A DNA stretch of 64,000 bases from Trichodelitschia bisporula (taxonomy: Eukaryota). The notes beneath the pieces are model-generated. The model was not told the origin of the DNA and did not search any database. It was given only the letters and a program-made list of their open reading frames with translations. Both the position numbers and the translations under genes were made by a program. Position 1 is the stretch's first letter. Each line of letters begins with the position of its first letter. Of the stretch, positions 22,146 to 49,161 are shown in pieces. The DNA is taken from assembly GCA_010356995.1 (NCBI GenBank), contig ML996689.1, positions 762,691 through 826,690 on the forward strand, in the 5' to 3' direction.

Positions 22146-22477
22146 GGGGGTGCATTGGGGGAGGGAATGAGGGTGTTGGGGATGAGGTGCAGGTATGCCG
22201 GCTGCTGTCACTGGCCTCGGGTCGTGCCCATGAAGGCTACATATCACTGGTAGTAATATGAACCCGCACATCCATTTCGCACGCTTCGGATCCGTTGATG
22301 TTCCAACGAAGCCGAAGAAATGGCCAGTGGATGAGTCTTCGAAGATACTACCAGCCTATCCAAGCCGAAGCTTCAAGGTCTTTCTCAATTGCAATCATAG
22401 AACACTGCTAGCACCCAACCCTCAAGCCGCATCCTGATCCGCCTGTCCCCCTCTACGGTCCAAATCCTAGGTGGATT

Positions 22478-22870
22478 GCATACCTTTTCTGTGTAACTGC
22501 TAGGGACTACATACTTTTCTATGTAACTGCTAGTGAGTACATGCATTCTCTATGCAACTGATAGTGAGTACATACTTGTTCTATGTAAATGCTAGCGAGT
22601 ACATGCTCATTCTATGTAAATGCTAGCGAGTACGGATGTACACACTTTACTATGTAACCTCTAGCGAATACGCACTTTGCTATGTAACTACTAGCGAATA
22701 CGCACTTTGCTATGTAACTACTAGCAAATACGCACTTTGCTATGTAACTGCTAGGGAATACATACACATTCTATGTAACTGCTAGGGAATACACACTTTG
22801 CCATGCAACTACCGGCAAATACACACTTTGCTATGTAACTGCTAGGGACTACATACTCTTTCTATGTAAT
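22478..22870. repeat. Minisatellite, ~13 units of ~30-31 bp (consensus approx. CTATGTAACTGCTAGGGAATACACACTTTG)
   Basis: The CTATGTAAC..CTAG core recurs about every 30 bp. Confidence 0.92.
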
Positions 22871-25500: not shown

Positions 25501-28500
25501 ATGCCGTGGCTGCGCCATTTGGCCCTGCTCTTGGCTGCAGGATGCGCCTTCGGGTCGCCCACGGCGCATGCAGGCGTGCTCAGCGCGCGCGCCGACGACG
25601 TGAGTTGCCCATTCCATTACTCTATGGTTGTCGATTCTTCGTGTCGCGCCCCGAAGCGGGCTTCACCACGCTCTTTCTGCGCGGCATAGCACGCTGCGGC
25701 AGCTATGATACTCAAGTGCATCGTCGCCGTGACGTTCGCGACGCTGGTCGCGGTCTTCACGTACCTACCGCGCGGCGTGCGCGAGCCGGATCCCATTGCG
25801 AATATTGTGGCCGTGTGAGCTGTGCTGATGTTCTCGCGCGTAGACCGAGTCTAATTCCGATGCCAGCGAGCCCGTCGGGACGCACGCTACGAGTCCGCCG
25901 TTTTACCCCTCGCCATGGATGGATGGGTCCGGGGCGTGGGGCGAGGCGTATGAAAAGGCGCAGGATTTTGTGCGGCAGTTGACGTTGTTGGAGAAGGTGA
26001 ATTTGACGACGGGAGTCGGGTACGTGGTTTTGTCCCCTGTGGCTTGGGACGTTTGCTGATGTGTGTAGCTGGGAGGGTGAGGGGTGTGTCGGGAATGTGG
26101 GGACGATTCCGCGCTTGGGGTTCAAGTCGCTGTGTATGCAGGACTCGCCGCTGGGCGTGCGGCTCGGTGGGTTTTCTGACTATTCGTCATTACGCATGGC
26201 TAATGTAAGCAGCGGATTATGTTTCTGCCTTCCCTGCTGGCGGCACCGTGGCTGCGTCGTGGGATCGCGATCTCTGGTACCGGCGCGGTTTTGCCATGGG
26301 CATGGAGCACCGGCTCAAAGGTGTCGACGTTCAACTCGGTCCGGTAGTAGGGCCATTGGGTCGCGCGCCAGAGGGTGGACGCAATTGGGAGGGATTCAGT
26401 CCTGATCCGGTCCTTTCGGGCATTGCGGTTGCGGCGACGGTGAAGGGAATTCAGGATGCGGGGGTTATCGCGTGTAAGAGAAGTTTGACGCTGGATTGGT
26501 CGTGGCTAATGCGAGACAGGTACGAAGCATTACATCCTTAATGAGCAGGAACACTTCCGGCAGGCGCCTGAAGCGATCGGGTATGGGTATAATATCACGG
26601 AGAGCGTAAGTTCTAATGTGGATGATGTCACACTTCACGAGCTGTATCTCTGGTATGTATCGACCCGCCTCCATCGGATACTCTCTGACAGCGAAGGCCC
26701 TTCGCGGATGCCATCCGCGCCGGCACCGGCTCAATAATGTGCTCCTACAACCAAGTCAACAACAGCTACAGCTGCCAAAACTCGCATCTCCTCAACGGCA
26801 TTCTCAAGGGCGAACTCGGCTTCCAAGGCTTCGTCATGAGCGACTGGCAAGCCCAACACTCAGGCGTCTCCAGCGCCCTCGCCGGTCTCGACATGACCAT
26901 GCCCGGCGACACGCTCTTCCTCACCGGCCGCTCCTTCTGGGGCGCGAATCTGACGCTCGCGGTGCTCAACGGCACGGTGCCCGAATGGCGTCTAGACGAC
27001 ATGGCCACGCGCATCATGGCGGCCTACTTCTTCGTCGGTCGCGACAAAATTGATGTGCCTGTTAACTTCAACTCCTGGACCCAGGACACCTTTGGGTACG
27101 AGCATGCGGCTGCCAGCGAGGACTACACGCAGGTCAACTGGCACGTGGATGTGCGGGCGGGTCATGGCCACGCCATCCGCGAAATGGCAGCGGACTCGAT
27201 TGTCCTGCTCAAGAACTCGAACGGTGCGCTCCCGCTCACCGGCGAGGAGCAGCTCACCGCCGTCTTCGGCGCCGACGCCGATGCGAACCCCTATGGCCCG
27301 AACGGATGTCCGAACCGCGGGTGCGACAACGGCACGCTGGCTATGGGCTGGGGGTCGGGCACGGCCAATTTCCCGTACCTCGTCACGCCGCTGACGGCGA
27401 TCCAAAACGTCGTCCTGCGCAACTATGCCAGCGTCGAGTCTGTGACGGATAACTGGGCGACCTCGCAAATTGCCACGCTGGCGCGCCGCGCGTCCGTTGC
27501 ACTTGTGTTCGTTGATGCGGACTCGGGCGAGGGGTTCATCAGCATTGACGGCAACGAGGGGGATCGGAATAACCTGACGATCTGGCGGGGTGGCGAGCAG
27601 CTGGTGCAAAACGTGAGCGCGCTGTGCAATAACACCATCGTCGTGATTCACTCCGTCGGCCCCGTACTCCTATCCTCATTCTACGACTCGCCCAACGTCA
27701 CCGCTATCCTCTGGGCCGGTCTTCCGGGCGAACAATCCGGTAATTCGCTCGTCGACGTGCTCTACGGCGCCGTGAACCCAAGCGGCAAGCTCCCGTTCAC
27801 CTTCGGCATCAATCGCGAGGACTACGGCGCGGATCTGCTGTACACGCCGAATAATGGCAACGCGGCGCCGCAGCAGGATTTCACGGAGGGCACGCTGATT
27901 GATTATCGTTACTTTGAGGCGAAGAATATCACGCCTGTTTATCCCTTCGGTCACGGGCTGAGCTACACGACGTTCGAGTACAGCGATCTGGACATCACTG
28001 TCACCGGCGCCGGAGCCTATGTACCTACCTCGGGCCTGACGGCTCCGGCTCCGACCCTGGGCAACGCGAGCAACAGTTCGTTCGAGGACTATGTCTTCCC
28101 GACGGATTTCCACCAGGTCCCGCTGTACATCTACCCCTGGCTCAACGGCTCCGACGCCGCAGATGCGTCCGACGATCCTTCCTACGGCGCTGATGCAAGC
28201 ACTTACCTTCCGCCTAACGCACAAAACGGCTCGGCCCAGGCCCGCGTGCGTGGTTCTGGCGCGCCGGGCGGACATCCCGCATTGTGGGACGTGCTGGCTG
28301 AAGTCCGTTTTACGGTCACGAATACGGGCGATAGGGGCGGGGCGGAGGTGGCGCAGGTGTATCTCGCTGGTCCCTCCGGGGAAGTCAGGGTGTTGAGGGG
28401 ATTTGAGAAGGTGTCTTTGGGGCCGGGGGGGAATACGGAGGTTGTGGTTCCGTTGACGAGACGGGATTTGAGTCGGTGGGATGGTGGGGTGGGGGATTGG

Positions 28501-28593
28501 GTGCTTGTGAGCGGGAGTAGGGGGGTTTGGGTTGGGGGCGGATTGGGGGATTTGCGGCTTAGTGGGGGGGTGGATGTTGGTGGTGGTTCATAG
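25501..28593 (+). CDS. Secreted GH3 beta-glucosidase (BglA/Bgl1 type), 6 exons
   Basis: Signal peptide, [44 protein letters not shown] nucleophile motif, DSGEG acid/base, FnIII-like tail. Introns ~25600-25843, 26020-26068, 26167-26212, 26474-26519, 26653-26696. Confidence 0.96.
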
Positions 28594-29334
28594 GGTGTGG
28601 GTTTGTGGCTAATGGGGGTTTGAACTATTAATGGAGCGAATTTTTGAATTCAGGTGCTGAACTACATGCAGGCGAGAGAGATACTACGTACATCCATCCA
28701 CTTCTCCGACCGGGGTATTGCCTAGGGCAGTACCGCCACCCGGAGGATCATGGTCTAGGGCAGCGATCCGACCCGCGGCGGGAGCAGAGGGCTCGCGTGG
28801 AGACGTCTGCGGTACCGTACTCACCTTGCCCAGTGGCACACTCTCAAATGCTAATGTAAAGAACGATCACTTGAACAGTCGTAGGAGCAAAACAAAGCGG
28901 AGTTGAAAGACGGCGAACCATGAGAGGGTCGCGGGGCCGGTAGGCATAACTACGAACAGTAACCCAATACCTCCCTTCCAATGCCCCTGATGTTACTTCC
29001 CTGTGGTTGGCATAAACAAACCCGTATCACCTAGAACTACCTAAGGTGACATAGCCAATCTATATACCGAGCATTGGGATGTAGCGCTACACACAGGGTG
29101 GTAGACAACTCTCGGTCCAAGACCACTGTGCTACTGACGCAGTGCAATACCACCTCAGCGAGATGAGGGAAACAAGGAGGGACTCTTTCCAAGTAGTCAT
29201 AGTTACGTATGAGGTGAGGAAGAGTGTCAATAATCCACGGTCATACCTGAGATACCTGCCGTCTGATCTAACGCTTGCCGATTCCCTGTCTTTGGAGTGT
29301 TTTAACCGCGGACTGGGAGGGCGATGTTGCGTAT

Positions 29335-30970
29335 CTCCCAATGGCAGGAAAAGGTCTTATTTAGCGGCGTTTACCGAGTTTTCCCACTGGATGGTGTGCC
29401 CTGTGGCCGGTGCTGGCGGTGCTAACTAGTTCGAGGACCAGGCCTACGTCTGCCATGGAGTTGTAATGCCCACGATGCCCACTGCCCCTATGGCAGGAGG
29501 AGGTTCTTCGTAGAGGCAGTGCCATTTTCCCGCAGGGTGGGCCTGGGGTGATGATAGCGTCCGTAACCAAAACAACCTCTGCCATAGAGGTATAATGCCC
29601 ATATGCCCACTGCCCCTATGGCGGGAGTAAGTCGTGCTAGCGGCACTACCGTGGTTCCGCAGGGTGGGCCTGGGGTGATAGTAACGTCGCTAACAAGACC
29701 TACTTCCGCCATAGGGATAATGCCCATAGGGATATAACGCTCAAAAGCCCACATGCCCATATGCCCACATGTAGCGCTGCGAAAGCCCGGCCGACGACAT
29801 AGAAGAATAGTGAGAAGGCCGCTGCCAGCATTGCGCGCATGGTCAATGACCCCCCCAAATGGAAGTCTTAACCAGCATCTTTTGTTCTAGCGTCTAACCG
29901 ACCCGTCACGCGGTATAGGAACGACGGCGGACGGTGAAGGTTATTGCGCCTTTGCGGAGCTATGGCTGGAGGGAGGCTTGCTAGGAGCGCTGCTACCATG
30001 CTCCCTTTCGGGGCGATGGGAGAGCTGCTAGCTGGCCTTACCCTCTGCACGTAGTCTGCTGGAGATCTATAGCAGGAGGAAGGCTTGCTAGGAGCGCGGC
30101 TACCATGCTCCCTTGCCTTCCCAAAGGGTGGGCCTGGGGCGATGGTAGGGTCACCAACAGACCTTACCCTCTGCCGTAGTCTGCCATAGGGGTCTTATGC
30201 CCAAATTGCCCACTGACCCACTGCCCCTATGGCTGGAATCCTCCTCTGCCATAGGGATGATGCCCTCGTACCCACATGTAGCGCTGTGGAGCCCAGCCGA
30301 CGACATAGAAGAATAGTGAGAAGGCCGCTGCCCGCATTGCGCGATGGTCAGGGACCCCCAATGGGAAGTTTGTAACCACCACTTGTGTTCTGGCGTCTAG
30401 CCGACCTGTGCACGCGGTATGGGGATGACGGCGGACAGTGAAGGTTATTGCGCTTTGCAGAGACTGGGGCCTCTGTCGTAGGGCCATGGGGGCGCTAATG
30501 CCCACATGCCCACTACCCTATGGCGGGGGTGAGGTATGCTAGAGGAGCTACCATGTTCCCACAGGGTGTGCCTGGGGGTGGTGCAACGTCCCTAACAAAC
30601 TCCACCGCTGGGGTAAGGTATGCTAGGGGAGCTACCATGCTCCCACAGGGTGTGCCTGGGGTGACAGTAACGCCCCCTAACAGACCTTACCTCCGCCATA
30701 GTGGTTATATAATGCCCACAGTGCCCACAAGCCCACAGTGCCCACAAGCCCACAAGCCCACAAGCCCATATGCCCACATGTATGTAGCGCTGCGGAGCCC
30801 AGCCAACGACATAGAAGAATAGTGAGAGGGCCGCTGCCCGCATTGCGCGATGGTCAGGGACTCCAGATGGAAGTTTGTAACCACCACTTATGTTCTAGCG
30901 TCTGAACCGACCTGTGTTGCACGCGGTATAGGGATGACAGCGGACAGTGAAGGTTATTGCGCTTTGCAGA
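29335..30970. repeat. Composite tandem array: three ~190-bp blocks at a 506-507 bp period, interleaved with ~8 related fold-back units (CCTATGGC...GCCATAGG)
   Basis: GTAGCGCTG anchor at 29771, 30278 and 30784. Inverted-repeat units at ~29335-29460, 29487-29590, 29614-29716, 29960-30054, 30067-30190, 30225-30256, 30516-30609, 30610-30701. Confidence 0.9.
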
Positions 30971-31182
30971 GGCGGGGGCGTCTGCTGGGCTCGGACCCAT
31001 TGTTTGTTGTCGAGAGATGGGATCGGAGGTGGAGGAGGATGTTGGTAAAGAGAGACAAGAGTGTTCGGAGGATGGGGAGGTGGTGGAAAGAGAAGAGGAG
31101 TGTGAGAGTGGGTTGTAAAAGTTTCGTTGGAAGAGGAGTCCTCCACTGGTATTTATACCCCCTCAGCCTCGCCAAGCCCTCT

Positions 31183-31345
31183 TGTTGATGTGATGCGTCG
31201 AACGATGCTGGCGAGCAAATGAGGAAGGAGCAACCCAGATCATTCTCATGTTGATTTGAAGTATTAGCGTTGAACGATGCTGGCGAGCGAATGAGGAAGG
31301 AGCAGCCCGGATCATTCTGCCGGATCATTCAACCGGATCATTCAG
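31183..31345. repeat. Two ~65-70 bp direct repeats ending in four GATCATTC units
   Basis: GAACGATGCTGGCGAGC(A/G)AATGAGGAAGGAGCA twice, then CCGGATCATTC reiterated. Confidence 0.85.
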
Positions 31346-31933
31346 CAGAAGGGGGACGCCTTGCAGAAGAGGAAGGCACGACCGCCAGCGCCTGCTAACA
31401 CCGCGGAAGTTTCCCAGAGGTAAGTCCATGCCATTCTGCGGGTCTGTGCTTTGGCTGTTCCCGGGCAAACTCCGAGAAGATTGATCCGGGGACGCAATAA
31501 CATGAGTCTGGATGGTTGAGACGAGATGCAAAAGAGCTCGCCTTGGGCATCGAGCACCGAGGGGGCCTCAACCATGGGAGCACAATGAGAAGTGTGCCAT
31601 CTCAAGGCTAGGGAGATTATGGCAAGCCCACACTCTCACTGAATATCCAATACACCGGACTAGAAAGCACTTCATGGAAGGATGTTTGGCAAGGCACACG
31701 GCAAGTTGAACTAGGCCTCACAAACATTGTAACGTCAAAGCTGCATATGATGAGGCTGCTAATCCATTCAATTCATTGATCTAGAAACTCAAGTCCCTCT
31801 GGAACATTAACCGGGAGACCGTATCATTAGATGTCAAGCAAGACGCTTCATATAATGTCATTCTGAACAGTTCAGGGGTTACCCACACATCTGGAAGAAG
31901 CGCAACGGAGTGGGATTGAAGTCCCCACTTGAT

Positions 31934-32557
31934 TCAAGGTGACGGCGCAAGCTCGTCAGGCATGATACCGCGACATTCCTTGCGCTCCTTGCGCTTGTCC
32001 ATCTCATTGACGAATATGTCAACCATCAACTGAAGCCCCCATTCGGTTTCCCAGACAATTTGCTCCCAGTAAGCGGCAAATCCCTTGTAGTACAACGCCG
32101 TTGCGGCAATGAAGTCACGCACAATGCTGCGGGCGTAGTCGCAGTCGGACCGTTTGCCCCTGCGTTCAAACGTGATCCAGTCGAGGGCCCATTCCTCGTA
32201 GTTCTCGGGTTCGACCTTTCTCCGATGCGTGTAGTACTCCGCCTCCAGCCGTAACTTCCTCAGCAGAAGCTGTGGTGGTGATACCTTATGGATTGTGTTA
32301 TACGCCTTGTTAGGAGTGTCGCAATTGGCAATCAAACGTTGTAGCTGCTTGCACACTGTGCTGTTGATGACCGCGAGCACCCCGATAGCCTTAGGGTCCA
32401 TTGGATCAGTTGATGCTTTCTCATTGACGTCAGCGGCATTGAAGTCGACCGGATGTTCAACGGAGAGACTCCGGACGTATTCCACCAATTTTGCCCGCCA
32501 TGCAAGCCATTGCCTCATCTGGCAAAGCACTATCCGCCCGTCCGCAGCCATCTGCAT
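31934..32557 (-). mobile_element. Solitary Ty1/copia-type Gag (capsid)-like ORF, 207 aa, no pol or LTR seen
   Basis: The pattern QWLAW..INSTV..CDTPNKAY..LEAEY..YEEWALDW..DFIAA..FAAYW resembles fungal copia gag N-terminal regions (from memory, not searched). Uninterrupted ORF, with TATA-like TTATAAA at ~32797-32791 and a CT-rich leader. Confidence 0.6.
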
Positions 32558-32969
32558 TGGAGCTTCGAGACTTGTTGGCCTTGGCCGTGTGGTGAAGTGA
32601 GGAAGTAGCGAGTCCGGGGAGATCCGGGTGAAGAGAGGGAGGGAGGGATTTGAAGGGTTGCTGGGTAACTTGCGGTGTTGTGCAGCGATGACGCTTTTGA
32701 TCCTTCTTTGGACCCGCTCATGAGACGCAGATACTCTCGCTAGCGGAAGTGATCGAAAGAAACAACGTCAATAGTGTGTCGCAAGCGGGGTTTATAACTG
32801 TCACCAGAGATGCGCCGGCAAGTATGTCAGGAAGTTGGTCGACATGTGTTGGAGCAAACTGCAGCTATCTAATGTCTTATGCGACTAGATGCCAAGAGTT
32901 GACGTTGAGGAAAGTACTACCCACCGGCGAACCTCCTTCTAGGGTATGCGCCACACCCCTCATGAGACA

Positions 32970-33863
32970 TTGAATCTAATCCGCAAGTGGTGAAGTCGAG
33001 GTACATCGAAAGGTAGTAGAACTCTCTGTGCGGGCATAAGGATATAAATTAAATCCTTCTAAACGACTAGTTCTAAATGTCCCTTCTGCTCCTCCCTTCT
33101 CGCCGGTCGTGAGGATCGGCTACAAGGGTTATGGCGCGGAGTCAGGCGTGCTCCAGCATTTATGAGTATGATTGCCGCACGCTGAGGGAGCGGAGACCTC
33201 ATCCGGTTGAAAATAGCCCGAACTTTTCAAGGTCCCCCCTAACTTGATCTAGCCCGCAAGTGGTGAGTCGAACTACCTGGAGAGGTAGTAGACCTGCCAG
33301 TACGGGCATGGAGATATAAATCACAATCCTTCTAAACCACTTAACTGCCCCTTCTGCCCATCCCTTCTCACCGGCTGTGAGGACCGGCTACAAGAGTGCA
33401 CGTCGCAGAGTCATGCGTGTTCCGGCAATGCAATCGGCGCACTGATACATTGCCACACGCCGAGGGAGCGGAGACCTCGCCCGGGACCTTCGCCCGGAAC
33501 CTGTAAGGCCCGCTTGATTTAATCTATCCCGCGGGCAAGGGTCGGACTACATAGAGAGGTAGTTGACCTGTAAGCGCGGGCGTGGAGATATAAATTAAAA
33601 TCCTTCTGAACAACTTAACTGTCCCTTCTGCTCCTCCCTTCTCACCAATCGTGAGACCGGCTACAAGGATATGGTCGCGGAGTCATGCGTGCTCCGGCAT
33701 TTATGAGTATGATTGCCGCACGCTGAGGGAGCGGAGACCTCATTCCGTTACAATATCCAGAACTTTCAAAGTCCCCGCTTGACTTGATCTAGCCCGCGGG
33801 CAAGGGTCAGACTACATGAAAGGTAGTTGACCTGTTAGCGTGGGCGTCGAGATAGAACTTTTT
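32970..33863 (+). repeat. Tandem array of ~270-bp structured units (3 full plus 1 partial)
   Basis: GATA(T/G)A anchor at 33041, 33313, 33587 and 33851 (spacing 272, 274, 264); conserved hairpins with compensatory changes. Confidence 0.9.
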
Positions 33864-34122
33864 AACGGGAGTTGATAGTGTCTGCGGAGAGAGCGTGCGG
33901 ACAAGGCTGCCAAGCCGTCTAGCGGAGATGCGAGACTGGAGTTGAAGGGTGGAGGGTTTTACGCATCGGAACAATATATCGCCATGTCGATTGAACTATG
34001 AGTTGGATCGTGCATTTGAGGACAGATTCGGCGTTATGGAGAGTGTCCAATGACTAGCTTGGCAAACAATGAATGTTAGCTCAGTTCCGCGATGCTGATG
34101 TTCAAAGGTCGCTAATGTTGAA

Positions 34123-34203
34123 GGGTACAGAATCTCGTTTTTTCTCAAGTCGTGACACAGCTTGCAATCTCGGGTCAACCTTTCGTATAGATCATCATTG
34201 CCC
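34123..34203 (-). pseudogene. Duplicate of the intron-6 snoRNA with box D changed to CTGT (intron 7)
   Basis: Direct repeat 34072-34280 vs 34319-34530; ATGATGA intact at 34198-34192, CTGT at 34130-34127. Confidence 0.55.
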
Positions 34204-34369
34204 AACAGGTGCACTGAGAGATCTCATAAGAAACGTCCAACAGAGAACTTGGGCACAGGTGCCGTCGGTGACTTACAGAAGGGGATACTTTGGACATTCT
34301 AAACAGAGCCAAACCTGTAATGTTAGCTTAGTTTCGCAATCCTGATGTTCAAAGGTCGTTGATGTTAAA

Positions 34370-34455
34370 GGGCTCAGACTCTCGTTGTTCTCATGTCATG
34401 ACGCAGCTTGCAATCTCGGGTCAACTTCTTTCGTACTTATCGGTCATCATTACCC
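34370..34455 (-). ncRNA. Intronic box C/D snoRNA candidate (intron 6), no target assigned
   Basis: ATGATGA 34450-34444, CTGA 34377-34374, terminal stem GGGT/GCCC. Confidence 0.7.
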
Positions 34456-34625
34456 AGTTAGAGGATTGATCGATTCCATAAGAAAGGCCCAAAGAGCTTG
34501 GGCACAGGTGCCGTCCGTGACTTACAAAAGAAGACGCCGTGAACGCTCTGAACCAGATGAAATCTGCGAAACCATCAGCCTTGACCTGAGGAAGTCAAGT
34601 ATCGACCATTTGCGACCATTTCGAG

Positions 34626-34703
34626 GCGGTCAGGTCACGTAAGAATTCATCATCGAGGGGAAACCCCACGGTCGGTCTACTCTCTTGTTTTTCATCATGC
34701 CAC
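34626..34703 (-). ncRNA. Intronic box C/D snoRNA (intron 5), no target assigned
   Basis: C ATGATGA 34698-34692, D' CCGA 34675-34672, hairpin GGGG-TTT-CCCC, C' ATGATGA 34653-34647, D CTGA 34633-34630, terminal stem GTGG/CCGC. Confidence 0.82.
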
Positions 34704-34837
34704 AATGTTGAAAGATTAGCTGACAGCGACTTACAAGCAGGGATAAAGGCGACGGAGCATGAGGTGAGAACCGAGACCGGGCACAAAACTGTTAGGCCCT
34801 CTTTCCTAAAACCCAGAGTGTAGTCGAGAAGGGAAGG

Positions 34838-34925
34838 CCGTTCGGTTGAATAGGTGTTTCCATCTCAAGGGCCAGGTTCGTGTAAGATCGAAAGATTTAG
34901 CACTCAATAAGCATCATCAAAACAA
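34838..34925 (-). ncRNA. Degenerate box C/D snoRNA candidate (intron 4)
   Basis: TTGATGA 34920-34914 and D-like CCGA 34845-34842, at the same relative intron position as its neighbours. Confidence 0.4.
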
Positions 34926-35053
34926 GATGCGGAAGAGTGTGGCTGGCTCTTACAGCAGTGGGGAATGGCCTCAGCCGATTCGGGGTTTCCTAGATCGTAC
35001 GCAATGTCAGCTAGCTTCCAACCATTCCCACAGTCGTCGAGCGTTTCAAGAAG

Positions 35054-35137
35054 CGGTAGTCAGATATGTTTTTATCTCCATGTCAAGGTTTCAACCTTGG
35101 TGAGACTTCTTTCCTCTAAGTCATCATGAAAGTACCG
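35054..35137 (-). ncRNA. Intronic box C/D snoRNA candidate (intron 3), no target assigned
   Basis: ATGATGA 35127-35121, CTGA 35063-35060, terminal stem CGGTA/TACCG, internal hairpin CAAGGTT/AACCTTG. Confidence 0.7.
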
Positions 35138-35849
35138 AATATTGTATGATAGACAGATGTTTGTCACATCAGTGCGCAAAAGGGCTTACCGATTCAATAG
35201 AGATAGCATGCTACAGCAAGTCGGCGGTGACTGGACGGAAGCGGCGTTCGCAAGTTCGGAGGCGTATGGTGATTAAGAATCGTTCTGTGCACGTATGCTT
35301 AGAGCAACCAGAGTCTTCTATGCTGGAGTTAGTATCCTGCGACAATATTTGACCCTCCATGGGTATATGCAGGAAGGTGCCGTTTCATCGGATGCATGCA
35401 TCACGAGAGAGCTAGGTGGGAGTGTCGCTTAAACATTGCACACCGGTGGGCATATGTGCTTCAGAATGGATATTTGGAAGTCACTGAGTACGGAAGATGG
35501 CATGTCTTGAGCTGGCACAATAGCAGATAGGCTTAGAAGTTGACTTCATGAGTGCTCAGAGCAGCTTGTTTGCTGACAACAAAGACTACGGAATGACGCA
35601 TGACAAGACGCATACCAGATGCTGATACCAGCAGTTCGCTTCCTGAAGACCGAGCTAACAGGCTGAGGTTTTGCGCAAACCAGCATAGGCATTATGTGAT
35701 ACCAGATACATGTTATCAACCGAAGTGCAAAGGACACAAACACCCAGTGAGCCAGCACCCAGAAGCCAGTCAGAAGTGGAGTACCTGGCGTGTCGGAAAA
35801 GCGTTAGCATGTGTTGTTACTGTAAGCGGAAACAATGTAGAGAATTGCT

Positions 35850-35980
35850 GTGGTCAGAGAGAAGATTGGTTCACCAGTGGACGATGAAGCACAAAAACCA
35901 GAGCCGGAAGGACCGATCGGCTTCTGTACAGCACCGAACTTTGTAAGGCTAAGGATGATACGAATGATTCATCATAGGAG
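35850..35980 (-). ncRNA. Box C/D snoRNA, predicted U6 2'-O-methylation guide (mgU6-47/SNORD7 type)
   Basis: Box C ATGATGA 35975-35969, box D CTGA 35857-35854. The guide AATCTTCTCT next to D is complementary to U6 AGAGAAGAUU, and D+5 falls on the last A of ACAGAGA. Confidence 0.8.
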
Positions 35981-36487
35981 CGGCGCAGAGTTGAGAATGT
36001 CAAGTGATCACTTACCATGCTGTCAAATAAAGGACCATTGCAATGATCACTTATTGAAACGCAAATATGGTTGAAGCCAGCGAAATGTTGCCAGAGGCGC
36101 TGTAGTCATTGGAAGAGGCAGTGATGAGGGAATGAAGAGGGTGAGTTGGAGTGGGTTGGAGAGTAGAGGGTGCAGAATGTCGCCTTTTATAGGAAGATGC
36201 AGGTGGCCTGTGCTCGTCCTGCTTCAGTTAATCTGCGGCGGTAGCAGGAGCGATGAAGCAGTGGCAGAAGTGATCAAGCAATGGCAGGAGCGATCGAGGT
36301 TGCCTTCGCTTGCAGTGCAGCCAAGGGGCCACCGGAAAAACGTGGCCTCAGCGTAAGTTGGCCGTTCACGGCAGTGACGGTTGCTAGCCAGCAGGTTTGG
36401 CGTCGAAGGTGCATGAGATGACTCCTCATGGAAGCTGTCCGACCGCAGTATGGCACGTGTCTGAGATATCTGAAGCGTTGAAGGATC

Positions 36488-36995
36488 TCAATCCATCACA
36501 CCGCCGGTACTTTCAACCACACGAACGACGTCGTCTTTGATCTCCGGCACCGCTGAGATGAGTTCTTTGGCGAGGACGTCCCGGAACTGTGCAAAGGCCT
36601 CCGTCTTGCCCTTGAGCTTCTGGTTCTGCTTCATGACAAGTTCCACAAACTCGCGCGTATAGATATCAGGGTTTCTACCCTCTTGGACGTATTCGATGAC
36701 TTCCGGCGGAATTGTAAATTGGAGATTCGGTACGGTTTCTTCGAGCGCCGCGAGATTGTTCGCAAGGTCGGTGCTGAGGCATGTCAGCAACGGTTGAAGC
36801 TACGCCTCCGGCGAGAGCAACATTTCGCGTTTCATGGCAGCTTCTGTCGGAGCCCCCTGGTGCTCAAGAGCCTGCACAATGAGATTGTACAGATTTTGAG
36901 TGACACTCTTCATCTGGTCTGTCGGACGTCAGTGCGATGCAAGAGTGGAGGATAGAGATCCTACCGTCAACCTGGGCGAGCGTTGCCTGAGCCAT
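36488..36995 (-). CDS. MED10: Mediator subunit Med10/Nut2, 3 exons
   Basis: IPPEVIEYVQEGRNPDIYTREFVE..NQKLKGK motif. Upstream exons MAQATLAQVD and QMKSVTQNLYNLIVQ are joined by two short introns. Confidence 0.93.
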
Positions 36996-37166
36996 TGCGG
37001 AAGATTTTCAACCGTAGGAGCGATTTGTGCTAGAAGGGAAGTCTGAAGAACACGAAGTACAAGTTAGGCAGTTCAAGAGGAAACCAGGTTATTCGTTCAA
37101 AGATTTTGGTTGATGTGGTTTACGAAGACGTGAAGTCAACGCACAAACGCGTGCGGCTCTCGGCGC

Positions 37167-43392: not shown

Positions 43393-45427
43393 TCACTGCC
43401 CATCCCCCCTCGCCCCAAACCCCCCCTGCTCAATCCGATGCATCCCACCCGGCATCTCCCCCCCACCCCTTGAATGCAACTCCAACTTCTGCATCAATTT
43501 CCCCACAACAAGATACTCCTGCGGCTCGAGCTGAAAAAAGCTCATAACAACCTCCAGTGCCCGCCTCGTATCCTCCACACTCGGCGTCCCCCCCGCAGCC
43601 CCCGTGGGACTCCCTCTCGGACTCCCCTTCACATCCGGCGTCGCAGGCGTCTCGACCGACCCTGCATCCCGGCGCGTCAGCATAGATTCCCGGCCTCCCC
43701 CCCCGCCAGACGAAGTCGCCATGCCCATATCCAGCCCCACGACCCCTAGCCCCGTCATCTCGCCCTCGTACTTCCCCAGCGGACTCCCGCGCCCACTCCC
43801 GCCCATTCCCCCTTCCCCTCCCCCGTGTCCCCCCCCAGGCCCCGACTCTCCGCTCCCCCCGCCTCCGCTCCCAGTGAATCCCGCGTCTAGGCTCCCGATT
43901 ACAGGGAATGTCTGGCTGCGGGGCCTAGGGTGGAAAGCGCTGCTCCCGAGGGGCCCGGTCGCGCTGCCGCGTTGAGGTTGTGCTTGGGATTGAGCTTGTT
44001 GTTGCTGGGCGGCGGAGGCGGGCGAGTATGGCGCGTGCAGGCCCGGGCTGAAGAAGGCCTCGGGGCTGGTGGGCGTGTAGCCCGAGGCCGGCTCTGAGTC
44101 GGCGAAGGCGCTGGCGAGCGAGGAGGCGCTGAGACTGTGGTAGGGCTTGTGGTGGGGGAAATCGGGGAAGGGCGCGTGCTTGGTCGGCGGCGAGGTAGGG
44201 GTTTGGTGTTGTGTTTGGTGGGGGGTCAAGGAGGCGGGGCCGCTGACGGAGCTGGAGCGCTGGGAGAGGTGCGGGTGTGGTGAGGAGGGGGAGAGGTTGG
44301 TGGAGGGGGAGTGGGCGCCGGAGGCGGGGTTTGAGACGGGGGTGGAGGCCGGTTGCTGGAGCGAAGAGTCCGGAGCTGAGCTTCCTGCGCCATTCTCGTC
44401 GGCTGCTGCTACGCTGTTTTTGCGCGATTTGGCGCCGGCGCCGAGAAGGTTGTTCTTCTGCTTGAACTTCTCGAGCCAGGACGCGTTGTTCGCCTTCTGG
44501 TGCGAGTCTGGCGAGCCGACGGTGGTGGCGAAGAAGCGCAGCTTCTCGCGGATCAGCGCGTCGGACATGGGCAGGCCTTGCTTCTGGTGGTTCTTCGCCC
44601 AGTTGGAGAGGGCGCGCTCGATGTCGGGGAACTTGCCTTTGGATTTGCGCACGGGCGAGCGGCTGCCGTCGTCGTGCAGGTACTTTTCCTTGTTGCGGAG
44701 GACTTTGGACACGGTGCTGCGAAGATAGCGAAGTTAGGACATGATGCATGTTACTTCAATGGCCTGCTTTGCAGGCCCAAATGGTTAAAGTTCGCCCGTA
44801 CCTTCGTTCCACCCCAAACATCGCTGTTCCATCGTCAGTCTTGTGCTCTCATTCGATTCTCAGCATTCCAAAGTAAATCAACTCACCTCCAATCTCCGTC
44901 TGCTTTACGGTCGGATGCTCCTCAGCATATTGACACATCCTCTTCCGATCTGCATCCGTCAGCGTCTTCCGCGGCGTCGGCGCGCCATGCCTCTGCGGCA
45001 CCGCCAACGGCACCCCAAGCGGATGCCCCTGCAACGGCGACGCATAGCTAGACTGGCTCGTCAACATAGAGGGCCACTGGGGTTGGGCCTGGGGCGTGAT
45101 AAGCGGTTGAAGCTGGTGGTAGGGAGGGCGCTGGTGGTGCTGCTGGGGAGGCGGCATGGAGCTCGACATGGAGGGTGGCATGGCGGAGGTCTGGAAAAGC
45201 GGCTCCATCGGCAGCGCGTTCCACGGCGGATAGCTGGACGGATACTCGTGCGGAGTGTGGAAGGCGGTGTTCGGGCTCTCGAGCGGCCATGACGCGCCGC
45301 CTGATCCGCCGGCTGAGTGCGCGCCGCCTCCCGCGCTGCTCGGCGTGCTGGCGTCGTGGTAGGGGAGGCCGTGATGCGCATCCTGATGGTGATGGTCCGG
45401 CTCCATGCTAATGACTATCATGCTCAT
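43393..45427 (-). CDS. CENP-B/ARS-binding type DNA-binding protein (two HTH domains, no DDE domain)
   Basis: PRKTLTDADRKRMC..KQTEIGAMFGVERSTVSKVLR (via a 22-nt exon 44823-44802) and GKFPDIERALSNW..WLEKFKQKN. A possible extra terminal intron 43396-43347 would move the stop to ~43310. Confidence 0.88.

Positions 45428-49127: not shown

Positions 49128-49161
<34 letters not shown>
49128..49161. repeat. Poly-C/G homopolymer of ~34 nt
   Basis: Directly visible. Confidence 0.9.

Follow-up and report, generated by a model that had tools for sequence, protein, structure and literature searches.

A lone gene of probable copia-type gag origin amid unrelated tandem repeats in an intergenic island of Trichodelitschia bisporula

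The analysed stretch of DNA, 64,000 nucleotides of the Trichodelitschia bisporula contig ML996689.1 (the window), contains a 6.9-kb intergenic island with a GH3 beta-glucosidase gene on one side and Med10 on the other, which is filled by one open reading frame (ORF) and a set of tandem arrays. The neighbours being housekeeping genes, the term accessory interval, which an earlier sequence-only reading of this DNA had used for the place, is not apt. The ORF of 207 aa (31934..32557, minus strand, counted from its ATG in the ORF list) probably derives from the capsid region of a Ty1/copia-type Gag; an N-terminal helix and a helical core are proposed for it over the same interval (minus strand), while a Cys/His (CCHC) knuckle is absent from the 207 residues, just as the sequence-only reading had stated for the zinc knuckle. 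The stop-free frame around the ORF comes to 277 codons, and 300 mononucleotide shuffles of the interval 28600-35500 gave a frame of that length in 2 cases; the GC1/2/3 of the ORF is 0.56/0.39/0.66, the last value being inside the GC3 range of 0.62-0.80 in nine neighbouring coding stretches. The protein ends in a basic tail, KRKERKECR, and the public gene model of the ORF covers residues 53-207 only. The upstream region, as read from the letters (32558..32869, minus strand), comprises a TATA-like TTATAAA 5' of the ATG at about 32797-32791 and a CT-rich leader between this box and the ATG at about 32660-32600, both on the minus strand, so that the description of an intact 207-aa ORF with its own TATA box and CT leader was borne out. 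On the same strand, the ORF list contains an out-of-frame upstream ATG at 32721 opening a 63-codon upstream ORF, which may lower the translation of the main one.

Unjointed RNA-like contigs cover the ORF (31842..32869, strand not given; X3 at 31842-32869 and X4 at 31968-32841), X3 and X4 being of one sample from one study, with an RNA nature that was guessed by a tool and is backed by two traits: their cover is patchy, reaching 15 and 11 of 30 bins, and they have at 35781/36013 a CT..AC joint that is missing from the DNA runs. No sequence differences were found among the four sequencing runs compared. The RNA-like depth over the ORF, 24 and 10, is close to that at the GH3 gene's 3' end, 27 and 12. 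The ORF sits in a transcribed stretch, the contigs not giving which strand. A spliced RNA-like contig on the plus strand (32869..33238; X3 only, depth 3) leads from the upstream region of the ORF into the first unit of the right-hand array, and its two introns, 44 and 58 nt long, have GT..AG splice dinucleotides that were verified in the sequence. Both arrays are faintly transcribed at their edges, where low-depth RNA-like contigs reach the array ends (30650-31110 and 32869-33238), and most of either array is, unlike the ORF, without RNA-contig cover.

The other parts of a retroelement are missing around the ORF, and the claim that protease, integrase, RT and LTRs are lacking was upheld. Among 95 stop-to-stop frames of at least 50 aa in 28600-37100 (96 were listed, the first of which, inside the GH3 gene, was left out of the domain scan), no match to a protease, RT, integrase, RNase H or gag family was obtained at E <= 0.1. 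An LTR-like direct repeat pair bracketing the ORF was absent from the self-BLAST of the window (word 11, E <= 1e-6), in which all 16 non-self hits were local direct repeats, and the tblastn search with the C-terminal part of P0002, a relative of the ORF considered below, gave no remnant in the window. No second ORF copy was seen within the window, and the only protein at high identity to the ORF in the protein collections was its own record. Judged by the window and the protein collections, the locus is single-copy, unannotated genomic copies being possible.

To the left of the ORF lies the 507-bp array (29446..30984, strand not given; TRF and self-BLAST), in which three cores of ~200 bp (29753-29959, 30260-30475 and 30782-30984) alternate with variable blocks (29446-29728, 29957-30184 and 30523-30661) of palindrome-rich 84-129-bp sub-repeats, and such a two-tier array is a less common build. 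The start-to-start spacing of the cores is 506/506 and 504/509, and their mean column identity is 85%. To the right of the ORF lies the 274-bp array, for which the self-BLAST extent (32974..33860) implies about 3.2 copies and TRF (33041-33854, 74% matches) 3.0, and whose units, with a mean column identity of 84%, carry on the plus strand GATATAAAT and then a CT-rich run, directed away from the ORF. Two different repeat arrays (~507 bp at 29446-30984 and ~274 bp at 32974-33860) do flank the ORF, as had been reported. When the window was searched by BLAST with the 507 and 274 units, neither matched the other or had copies beyond its own array. Small duplications also lie on the 3' side of the ORF (72 bp x2, 13 bp x2.9; 31195..31344), and another local one, again unrelated, lies at 34063..34553 (247 bp x2); 12 of the 16 self-BLAST repeat hits, in 29446-34530, represent seven separate tandem duplications, and the island as a whole has at least seven such local duplications, mutually unrelated, of which the arrays are two. 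The depth of the DNA run X1 is 359-457 for the array contigs versus 426-484 for the flanks, with no sign of additional near-identical array copies elsewhere, and the array cores were not found in the metagenome collection searched. Both arrays are old, local and non-coding.

The folding of the arrays bears out in part their former description as structured or hairpin arrays. Two of the three sub-blocks of the 507-bp array fold better than their shuffles (z -2.68 and -3.67); the third (z -0.99) and the whole units (z -0.91 for 507 nt and -1.12 for 274 nt) fold no better than shuffles. For the 274-bp units, RNAalifold gave a covariation term of +0.9, with compensatory changes at 6 of 67 pairs in only 3 copies, and the single hit to Rfam was below threshold (24.9 bits versus a gathering score of 76). 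The conserved structure in the arrays is thus not convincing.

The relatives of the ORF are few. The phmmer search against 1.84 billion representatives gave, besides its own record, P0002 (E 8.2e-9) and P0003 (E 4.1e-4), both of which are proteins of Trichodelitschia bisporula and the only relatives of the ORF across two very large protein collections. At 25-30% identity to the ORF, they constitute with it a known family of three members, each a singleton cluster, and neither a high-identity orthologue from other species nor a close Gag relative was present in the protein collections searched. By BLASTP, residues 5-186 of the ORF align to residues 11-227 of P0002 with 25% identity; the alignment begins at residue 5 of the former and at residue 11 of the latter, and the N-terminus of the ORF is, therefore, complete. 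The ORF is shorter C-terminally (207 aa versus 382 aa in P0002) and is without a knuckle, while P0002 has the motif C-x-C-x3-H-x4-C downstream of the ORF-homologous region, at the place expected of a Gag knuckle, which was not scored as zf-CCHC in the Pfam profile search. In the hmmscan of Pfam-A, where Ty1/copia Gag is represented by Retrotran_gag_2 (PF14223), Retrotran_gag_3 and DUF4219, the ORF matched 0 families at E <= 10 and its relatives P0002 and P0003 matched 0 at E <= 1, and the PDB sequence search with the ORF gave no solved structure at E <= 10. The AlphaFold models of the ORF are of low quality, with a pLDDT of 40.9 when built on one sequence and of 48.4 when built on three, and fold searches with them recovered generic helical proteins only; the Drosophila copia capsid (8vvw_A), at rank 44 of the best 50 with Z 5.4 and rmsd 4.8 over 92 residues, is inside the noise of helical models, and Foldseek of these low-pLDDT models against PDB and BFVD gave no hit at E <= 0.001.

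More indicative of the origin is a language-model and structure atlas of protein clusters (Atlas), which provides feature neighbours and structure rows. The feature neighbours of P0002 score 0.96, 0.95 and 0.94, with 178-189 shared features, which is the range (0.94-0.96) that Atlas gives for same-family hits, and the third of them (0.94) is an ascomycete 'Gag protein' cluster of 100 members with 178 features in common. The ORF itself has unnamed clusters as its feature neighbours (0.90-0.92), and of 100 shuffled proteins, 4 to 10 reach 0.9. Clusters of PF14223 (Retrotran_gag_2) make up 7 of 10 structure rows of P0002 (TM 0.27-0.46), with one more being the ascomycete 'Gag protein' cluster, and 4 of 10 of the ORF (TM 0.28-0.43), all rows having TM < 0.5, 'under the bar', and both fractions are to be weighed against the very large number of PF14223 clusters, which may raise their base rate among the neighbours of helical proteins. 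The derivation of the ORF from a copia-type gag is likely on this indirect evidence. Accordingly, of the label copia-gag-like, the origin is retained as likely by virtue of the Cys/His motif of P0002 and the Atlas Gag and PF14223 neighbours, and a direct sequence match is not (0 Pfam families at E <= 10).

What lies at the locus is a lone gene of probable gag derivation, either host-retained or relic, and no capsid-plus-array system is seen. The explanation put forward here, tentatively and as something just short of probable, is an exapted lone gag gene amid unrelated repeats. The ORF would be the last piece of a Ty1/copia-type gag, of which the N-terminal helix and the helical capsid core would have been kept, while the nucleocapsid knuckle, pol and LTRs of the source element would have been lost; it would now be an exapted gag-derived host gene and no component of any element, a reading suggested because the locus is single-copy, has a promoter-like upstream region, sits in a transcribed stretch and is host-like in codon composition. 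We infer that the ORF could quite possibly have been kept by selection and not be a young relic. The arrays would be two of the duplications accumulated in the island and not partners of the gene, and that they have no functional relation to the ORF is highly probable. As its likeliest mode of action, the protein would self-associate via capsid-type helical interfaces and would co-assemble with the Gag of related copia elements, and this co-assembly would poison particle assembly as in Ty1 p22/p18 and yeast DRT2; a DRT2-like mechanism of restriction specifically, which is drawn by analogy, seems rather doubtful. No target Gag for lattice poisoning is visible among the proteins searched.

The same gene may be viewed, with somewhat less than an equal claim to belief and on the unlikely side, as a functionless relic, i.e., the best-preserved scrap of a decayed copia insertion, not under selection, with its transcription coming from an adjoining chance or bidirectional promoter and with the repeats as further junk of that island in decay. 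Elements are usually lost by LTR-LTR recombination, and what remains is then a solo LTR and not a solo gag, which speaks against this, as do the host-like GC3 of the ORF, the RNA-like contig depth near that of the neighbouring gene and the 277-codon frame that is still open, with an N-terminus aligning with its relatives, yet with all other element parts undetectable. A relic would agree with the C-terminal truncation (207 aa as against 382 aa in P0002, the knuckle missing), the out-of-frame ATG upstream, the non-coding repeat debris that makes up the rest of the island, the orthologues not detected in other taxa in the protein collections and, in the excerpted report on fungal gag genes, the dN/dS of 0.996 of Crtg12, a published candidate (PMC8321522). 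An origin other than gag is improbable: the ORF would be a lineage-restricted, fast-evolving helical protein and its likeness in Atlas that of any helical bundle, for which the Pfam, PDB sequence and fold searches without a gag match, the TM values all under the bar of 0.5 and the unnamed feature neighbours at 0.90-0.92, near the 0.9 that 4 to 10 of 100 shuffled proteins reach, may be adduced. However, the homology of the ORF to P0002 is significant, and P0002 combines feature scores of the same-family range (0.94-0.96, 178-189 shared), the 'Gag protein' cluster included, with a knuckle-like motif at the place of the Gag knuckle, PF14223 appearing in the structure rows of both (4 of 10 and 7 of 10).

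Far below these in probability stands the system proposed from the sequence, namely, an Arc/PEG10-like capsid that packages or binds the array RNAs, or the 29.3-33.9-kb interval as one gag-only non-autonomous element. If a capsid-derived host protein did assemble and bind or package RNAs from the hairpin-rich 507-bp and promoter-like 274-bp arrays, which is hardly credible, it would represent a fungal counterpart of the Arc/PEG10-like capsids, with a cargo locus dedicated and linked to it. Neither array is a terminal repeat or related to the other, both are counted among seven independent duplications of the island, their RNA cover is scant next to that of the ORF, their whole units fold like shuffles with neither covariation support nor an Rfam family, and their cores were not met in the metagenome collection searched; the ORF, for its part, has no knuckle, the usual source of RNA binding in Gag, and occupies a single-copy locus with no hint of mobility. 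These points outweigh the proximity of the ORF to both arrays, the two of three 507 sub-blocks that outfold shuffles, the low-depth RNA-like contigs at both array ends (30650-31110 and 32869-33238), the basic tail KRKERKECR, which could bind nucleic acid, and the precedent of gag-only non-autonomous elements in plants, TR-GAG, in the part of their description available (PMC13570524). Thus, of the domesticated capsid or unusual element, the part that survives as the likeliest origin, on indirect grounds, is a solitary ORF of gag descent that has its own promoter, and the packaging of array RNAs and an array-bounded element are not supported; the linkage as coincidental accumulation, which the sequence-only reading had allowed for, is the better reading in an island of seven unrelated duplications.

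In comparison with known systems, the two arrays are similar to the intergenic minisatellite-like arrays of fungi in being old (84-85% column identity), local and non-coding, and the 507-bp array differs from them by its two tiers of cores and palindrome-rich sub-repeat blocks. In the reading preferred here, the ORF would resemble Arc/dArc1 and PEG10 of animals in being a retrotransposon capsid gene turned into a host gene. Capsid formation and RNA transfer have been demonstrated for Arc/dArc1 and PEG10, whereas the ORF is known from sequence and no link of it to the arrays was found. Moreover, these animal genes derive, according to the excerpted text of PMC8321522, from the gag of another superfamily, Ty3/gypsy, and the ORF would be copia-type. 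The TR-GAG elements of plants, as far as the available part of their report goes (PMC13570524), have terminal repeats and form families of copies, in contrast to the single copy without terminal repeats in the island.

The closest known cases are the fungal Crtg genes and yeast DRT2. Crtg12 and Crtg13 were described by Wang and Han (2021) as co-opted Ty1/Copia gag genes of Dothideomycetes, and in the excerpt of that report they are, like the gene considered here, single-copy, expressed and without pol or LTRs; for Crtg13, as for the ORF, a closely related retrotransposon was not found (PMC8321522). The Crtg genes are defined in the same excerpt by shared synteny or host-like phylogeny in at least two families together with evidence of selection (PMC8321522), while the ORF is likened to them by its gag origin and lone state, synonymous sites being saturated at its 25-30% identity to relatives. 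Crtg13 is widely distributed, with 63 sequences in the excerpted account (PMC8321522); the detectable relatives of the ORF are just two, both of one species, and it is, therefore, not a detectable orthologue of Crtg13, which sets it apart from the Crtg proteins by the distribution of relatives and not by direct sequence comparison. DRT2 of Saccharomyces cerevisiae, in the portion of its report available (PMC13709905), is a ~1-kb Ty1' GAG remnant at a fixed locus, of which the ORF was kept and the element decayed, and acts as a restriction factor 91.5% identical to its target Gag, whereas the ORF here has no known close Gag relative. By the same portion, DRT2 retains the C-terminal capsid half, and the ORF the N-terminal end and core with the C-terminal part lost; the locus of DRT2 is full of Ty fragments and solo LTRs, and the island has only anonymous tandem repeats; purifying selection and restriction were shown for DRT2, and the ORF is known from its sequence and RNA-like contigs. 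Nevertheless, the gene has in common with DRT2 and Ty1 p22/p18, as far as the excerpted sources describe them (PMC13709905, PMC4599808, PMC8458377), the state of a promoter-bearing lone ORF from a partial Ty1/copia-type gag in a fixed place, and with DRT2 also the decay of the rest of the element around an expressed ORF, expression being here the cover by RNA-like contigs (PMC13709905).

The window DNA is fungal nuclear, and among its recognisable genes are those for Ku70/80, a Vid24-type vacuolar import/degradation protein, Tpt1, a PXA-domain protein, a DRG-type GTPase and a GT90 glycosyltransferase. The island with the candidate gag-like ORF lies between a GH3 beta-glucosidase gene, ending at 28593, and the transcript of Med10 (36491-36799, minus strand), whose RNA-like contigs begin at about 35532. 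The ORF (31934..32557, minus strand; 207 aa counted from the first ATG) is the sole long open frame of this island of about 6.9 kb, and the length of its enclosing stop-free frame, 277 codons, was matched in 2 of 300 shuffles of 28600-35500. Its codon composition follows the order GC3 > GC1 > GC2, the same as in nine neighbouring coding stretches, with a GC3 of 0.66 against 0.62-0.80 in the latter. On the coding strand, a TTATAAA is found about 235 nt 5' of the ORF ATG, followed by a CT-rich run, while an ATG at 32721, out of frame with the ORF, starts an upstream ORF of 63 codons. The scan for bacterial-type promoters and terminators, a type not applicable to a fungus, returned nothing, and the RIP-type dinucleotide indices across the island were mixed and non-diagnostic. 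Elsewhere in the window, a stop-free frame of 446 codons (43393-44733, minus strand) encodes the Tc5 transposase DNA-binding HTH (PF03221, E 1.1e-13) with no match to a transposase catalytic domain, and may be a pogo/CENP-B-like domesticated gene; 34 consecutive C occupy 49128-49161.

Within the visible sequence the ORF stands alone, as the sequence-only reading had held in describing it as devoid of protease, integrase, RT and LTRs. Thus, among the 95 stop-to-stop frames of at least 50 aa in 28600-37100, a scan that left out one listed frame inside the GH3 gene, no protease, RT, integrase, RNase H or gag was found at E <= 0.1, and in the self-comparison of the window no repeat pair brackets the ORF in the LTR manner. 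The tblastn search of the window with the C-terminal part of P0002, a relative of the ORF, found no trace of it.

The family to which the ORF belongs is small. Against 5.8 billion clusters, a word-indexed search with the single sequence returned its own public record, P0001, alone, and phmmer, run exhaustively on 1.84 billion representatives (E <= 0.001), gave three proteins, namely P0001, P0002 (382 aa, E 8.2e-9) and P0003 (202 aa, E 4.1e-4), the last two recorded from Trichodelitschia bisporula as hypothetical proteins. Each of the three is a singleton cluster, on contigs of 1.88, 1.58 and 2.04 Mb, respectively. By BLASTP, residues 5-186 of the ORF align with residues 11-227 of P0002 at 25% identity (pairwise E 8e-17), and therefore the ORF N-terminus is complete; the public gene model P0001, of 155 aa and beginning at Met53, looks truncated at its 5' end, since ORF residues 5-52 align with the P0002 N-terminus. 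Past the homologous region P0002 has 155 more residues, including a C-x-C-x3-H-x4-C motif that Pfam does not call as a zinc knuckle. The profile of the three sequences recovered only its own members among 7,999 scored candidates of the word-indexed search; no match to the family was found at E <= 0.1 among proteins of 670-2000 aa, so that a fused form is weakly argued against; and the metagenome scan with the profile gave 113 pattern matches, none of which was confirmed by tblastn.

The ORF is likely gag-derived, by a chain made of one solid homology and two soft concordant leads. Neither Pfam nor the PDB sequence search, the latter with both the single sequence and the profile, gave a match at E <= 10. 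The homology to P0002 leads to the protein atlas, where the three feature neighbours of P0002 have scores of 0.96, 0.95 and 0.94 (189, 185 and 178 shared features), the third being an ascomycete cluster named 'Gag protein'. Of the ten structure rows of P0002, seven are clusters of PF14223 (Retrotran_gag_2) and one is an ascomycete 'Gag protein' cluster, and 4 of the 10 rows of the ORF itself involve PF14223 (TM 0.28-0.43), all rows pointing to Gag falling under the bar of the atlas for family naming. The AlphaFold2 models of the ORF were poor, with pLDDT of 40.9 from one sequence and 48.4 from three, and the searches with the latter (Foldseek PDB, VIA wide PDB, BFVD) found generic helical matches only, the Drosophila copia capsid 8vvw_A standing at rank 44 with Z 5.4; because of the quality of this model, these results are neutral on the fold. 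The earlier designation "copia-gag-like" has indirect support, from the P0002 homology and the Gag and PF14223 neighbours, and finds no backing in the Pfam and PDB sequence tests.

As to transcription, the runs X3 and X4, from one sample of one study, were taken as RNA by their behaviour, no listed run being on record as such: only 15 and 11 of the 30 bins, respectively, are covered, in a patchy manner, and they carry in the Med10 transcript a CT..AC joint that is absent from the DNA runs. This joint corresponds to a 231-nt intron in the 3' portion of that transcript (35782-36012, minus strand; CT..AC on the plus strand), backed by contigs of both runs at depths of 97.5 and 59. Across the ORF run unspliced contigs, 31842-32869 and 31968-32841, which do not give the strand of transcription; their depths are 24 and 10, and the 3' end of the GH3 gene has 27 and 12. 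The repeat arrays on both sides of the ORF are nearly bare in X3 and X4, with one contig of depth 5 (30650-31110) and one spliced contig of depth 3, and gaps in the contig cover of the island are no evidence of silence. The plus-strand contig 32869-33238, of depth 3 and found in X3 only, leads from the upstream region of the ORF to within unit 1 of the 274-bp array. It has introns of 44 and 58 nt, both GT..AG, and may represent divergent non-coding transcription driven by a bidirectional promoter.

Both repeat arrays described in the sequence-only reading are real and different. The left one (29446-30984) has three cores of about 200 bp, at spacings of 506/506 and 504/509 and with mean column identity of 85%, which alternate with variable blocks made of sub-repeats of 84-129 bp, while the right one (32974-33860) consists of about three 274-bp units (matches 74%, mean column identity 84%). 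Every 274-bp unit carries GATATAAAT and a CT-rich run on the plus strand and is thus oriented away from the ORF. The 507-bp and 274-bp units have no likeness to each other or to other sequence of the window, and an exact scan of the metagenome collection with a 22-nt invariant core taken from the 507-bp array gave 0 matches. The word depth in the DNA run X1 was 359-457 for contigs within the arrays against 426-484 for the flanks, which weakly suggests that there are no extra near-identical genomic copies of the units; diverged copies would escape this measure. All 16 repeat hits of the 64-kb self-comparison are direct and local, four at 22473-22869 and 12 in 29446-34530, the latter making up seven distinct tandem duplications, whose periods are about 129, 507, 107, 84, 72, 273 and 247 bp. 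The whole island is duplication-prone, and the two arrays are therefore no special pair. At 34063-34553 a 247-bp unit, which shares no relationship with any other repeat in the island, is duplicated once with 80% identity; the only other sizeable tandem array of the window, at 22473-22869, is non-coding and intergenic, its periods of 30, 62 and 91 bp being nested in one another.

The designation of the left array as a hairpin array proved half right: it fits the sub-blocks, as DNA, while a conserved RNA structure did not emerge from the folding and covariation analyses. The variable sub-blocks hold inverted repeats, one pair having 51-nt arms that are 75% complementary. Folding exceeded that of shuffles in two sub-blocks of the three (z -2.68 and -3.67; the other -0.99), and the whole units of 507 and 274 nt did not surpass their dinucleotide shuffles (z -0.91 and -1.12, respectively). 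Among the three 274-bp copies the covariation term was +0.9, with 6 of 67 pairs compensatory, a comparison of three sequences that has no power. Rfam at E <= 1 gave for 28500-36500 one mir-3156 match far below the gathering score, taken as chance.

The ORF is best read as all that survives of a copia-type gag, and it would be either a well-preserved relic or a gene that the host has kept; the arrays beside it are best read as unrelated local duplications. Speaking for retention by the host are the intact N-terminus and the open frame of 277 codons that persist where the rest of the element has vanished, the ORF's own promoter-like region and host-like codon composition, and RNA-like contig depth close to that of the neighbouring gene. 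However, orthologues are not detectable, the C-terminal part has been lost, and the upstream ATG at 32721 counts on the side of the relic. The observation behind the sequence-only reading is largely confirmed, while its system of a capsid plus arrays is not: the capsid packaging the array RNAs is without support, the arrays being unrelated local duplications, and the alternative of a non-autonomous, TR-GAG-like element, by the definition in PMC13570524, fails on terminal repeats and, as far as the window and the protein searches reach, on copy number. That the 274-bp array serves as 5' LTR to the gag was also considered and rejected, since its TATA and CT-run point away from the ORF and the other side has no second copy.

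The finding in its present state is modest and of the annotation level. Should selection prove to act on the ORF, it would count as one more copia-gag capture, restricted to its lineage, and this in a filamentous fungus; the wider question is how frequently fungi that lack obvious defences against transposons turn capsid genes on their own elements. Lone gag genes kept by their hosts include Arc, PEG10 and Fv1 in animals, DRT2 in yeast and, in a few fungal lineages, Crtg12-14 from one survey. The ORF is probably a new, lineage-restricted member of the known class of lone genes derived from gag. Crtg12 and Crtg13 have been presented as co-opted copia gag genes of fungi, in Dothideomycetes, with 63 sequences for Crtg13 (PMC8321522); the ORF, with two relatives in one species, was rejected as a Crtg13 orthologue. 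A dominant-negative role like that of DRT2 would be the most likely function of the product, if it has any, yet a doubtful one; one consideration against it is that a close target Gag is not visible. The closest worked-out precedent is DRT2, which PMC13709905 describes as a Ty1' GAG remnant of about 1 kb that occupies a fixed locus, its element having decayed, and whose homotypic binding poisons capsid assembly.
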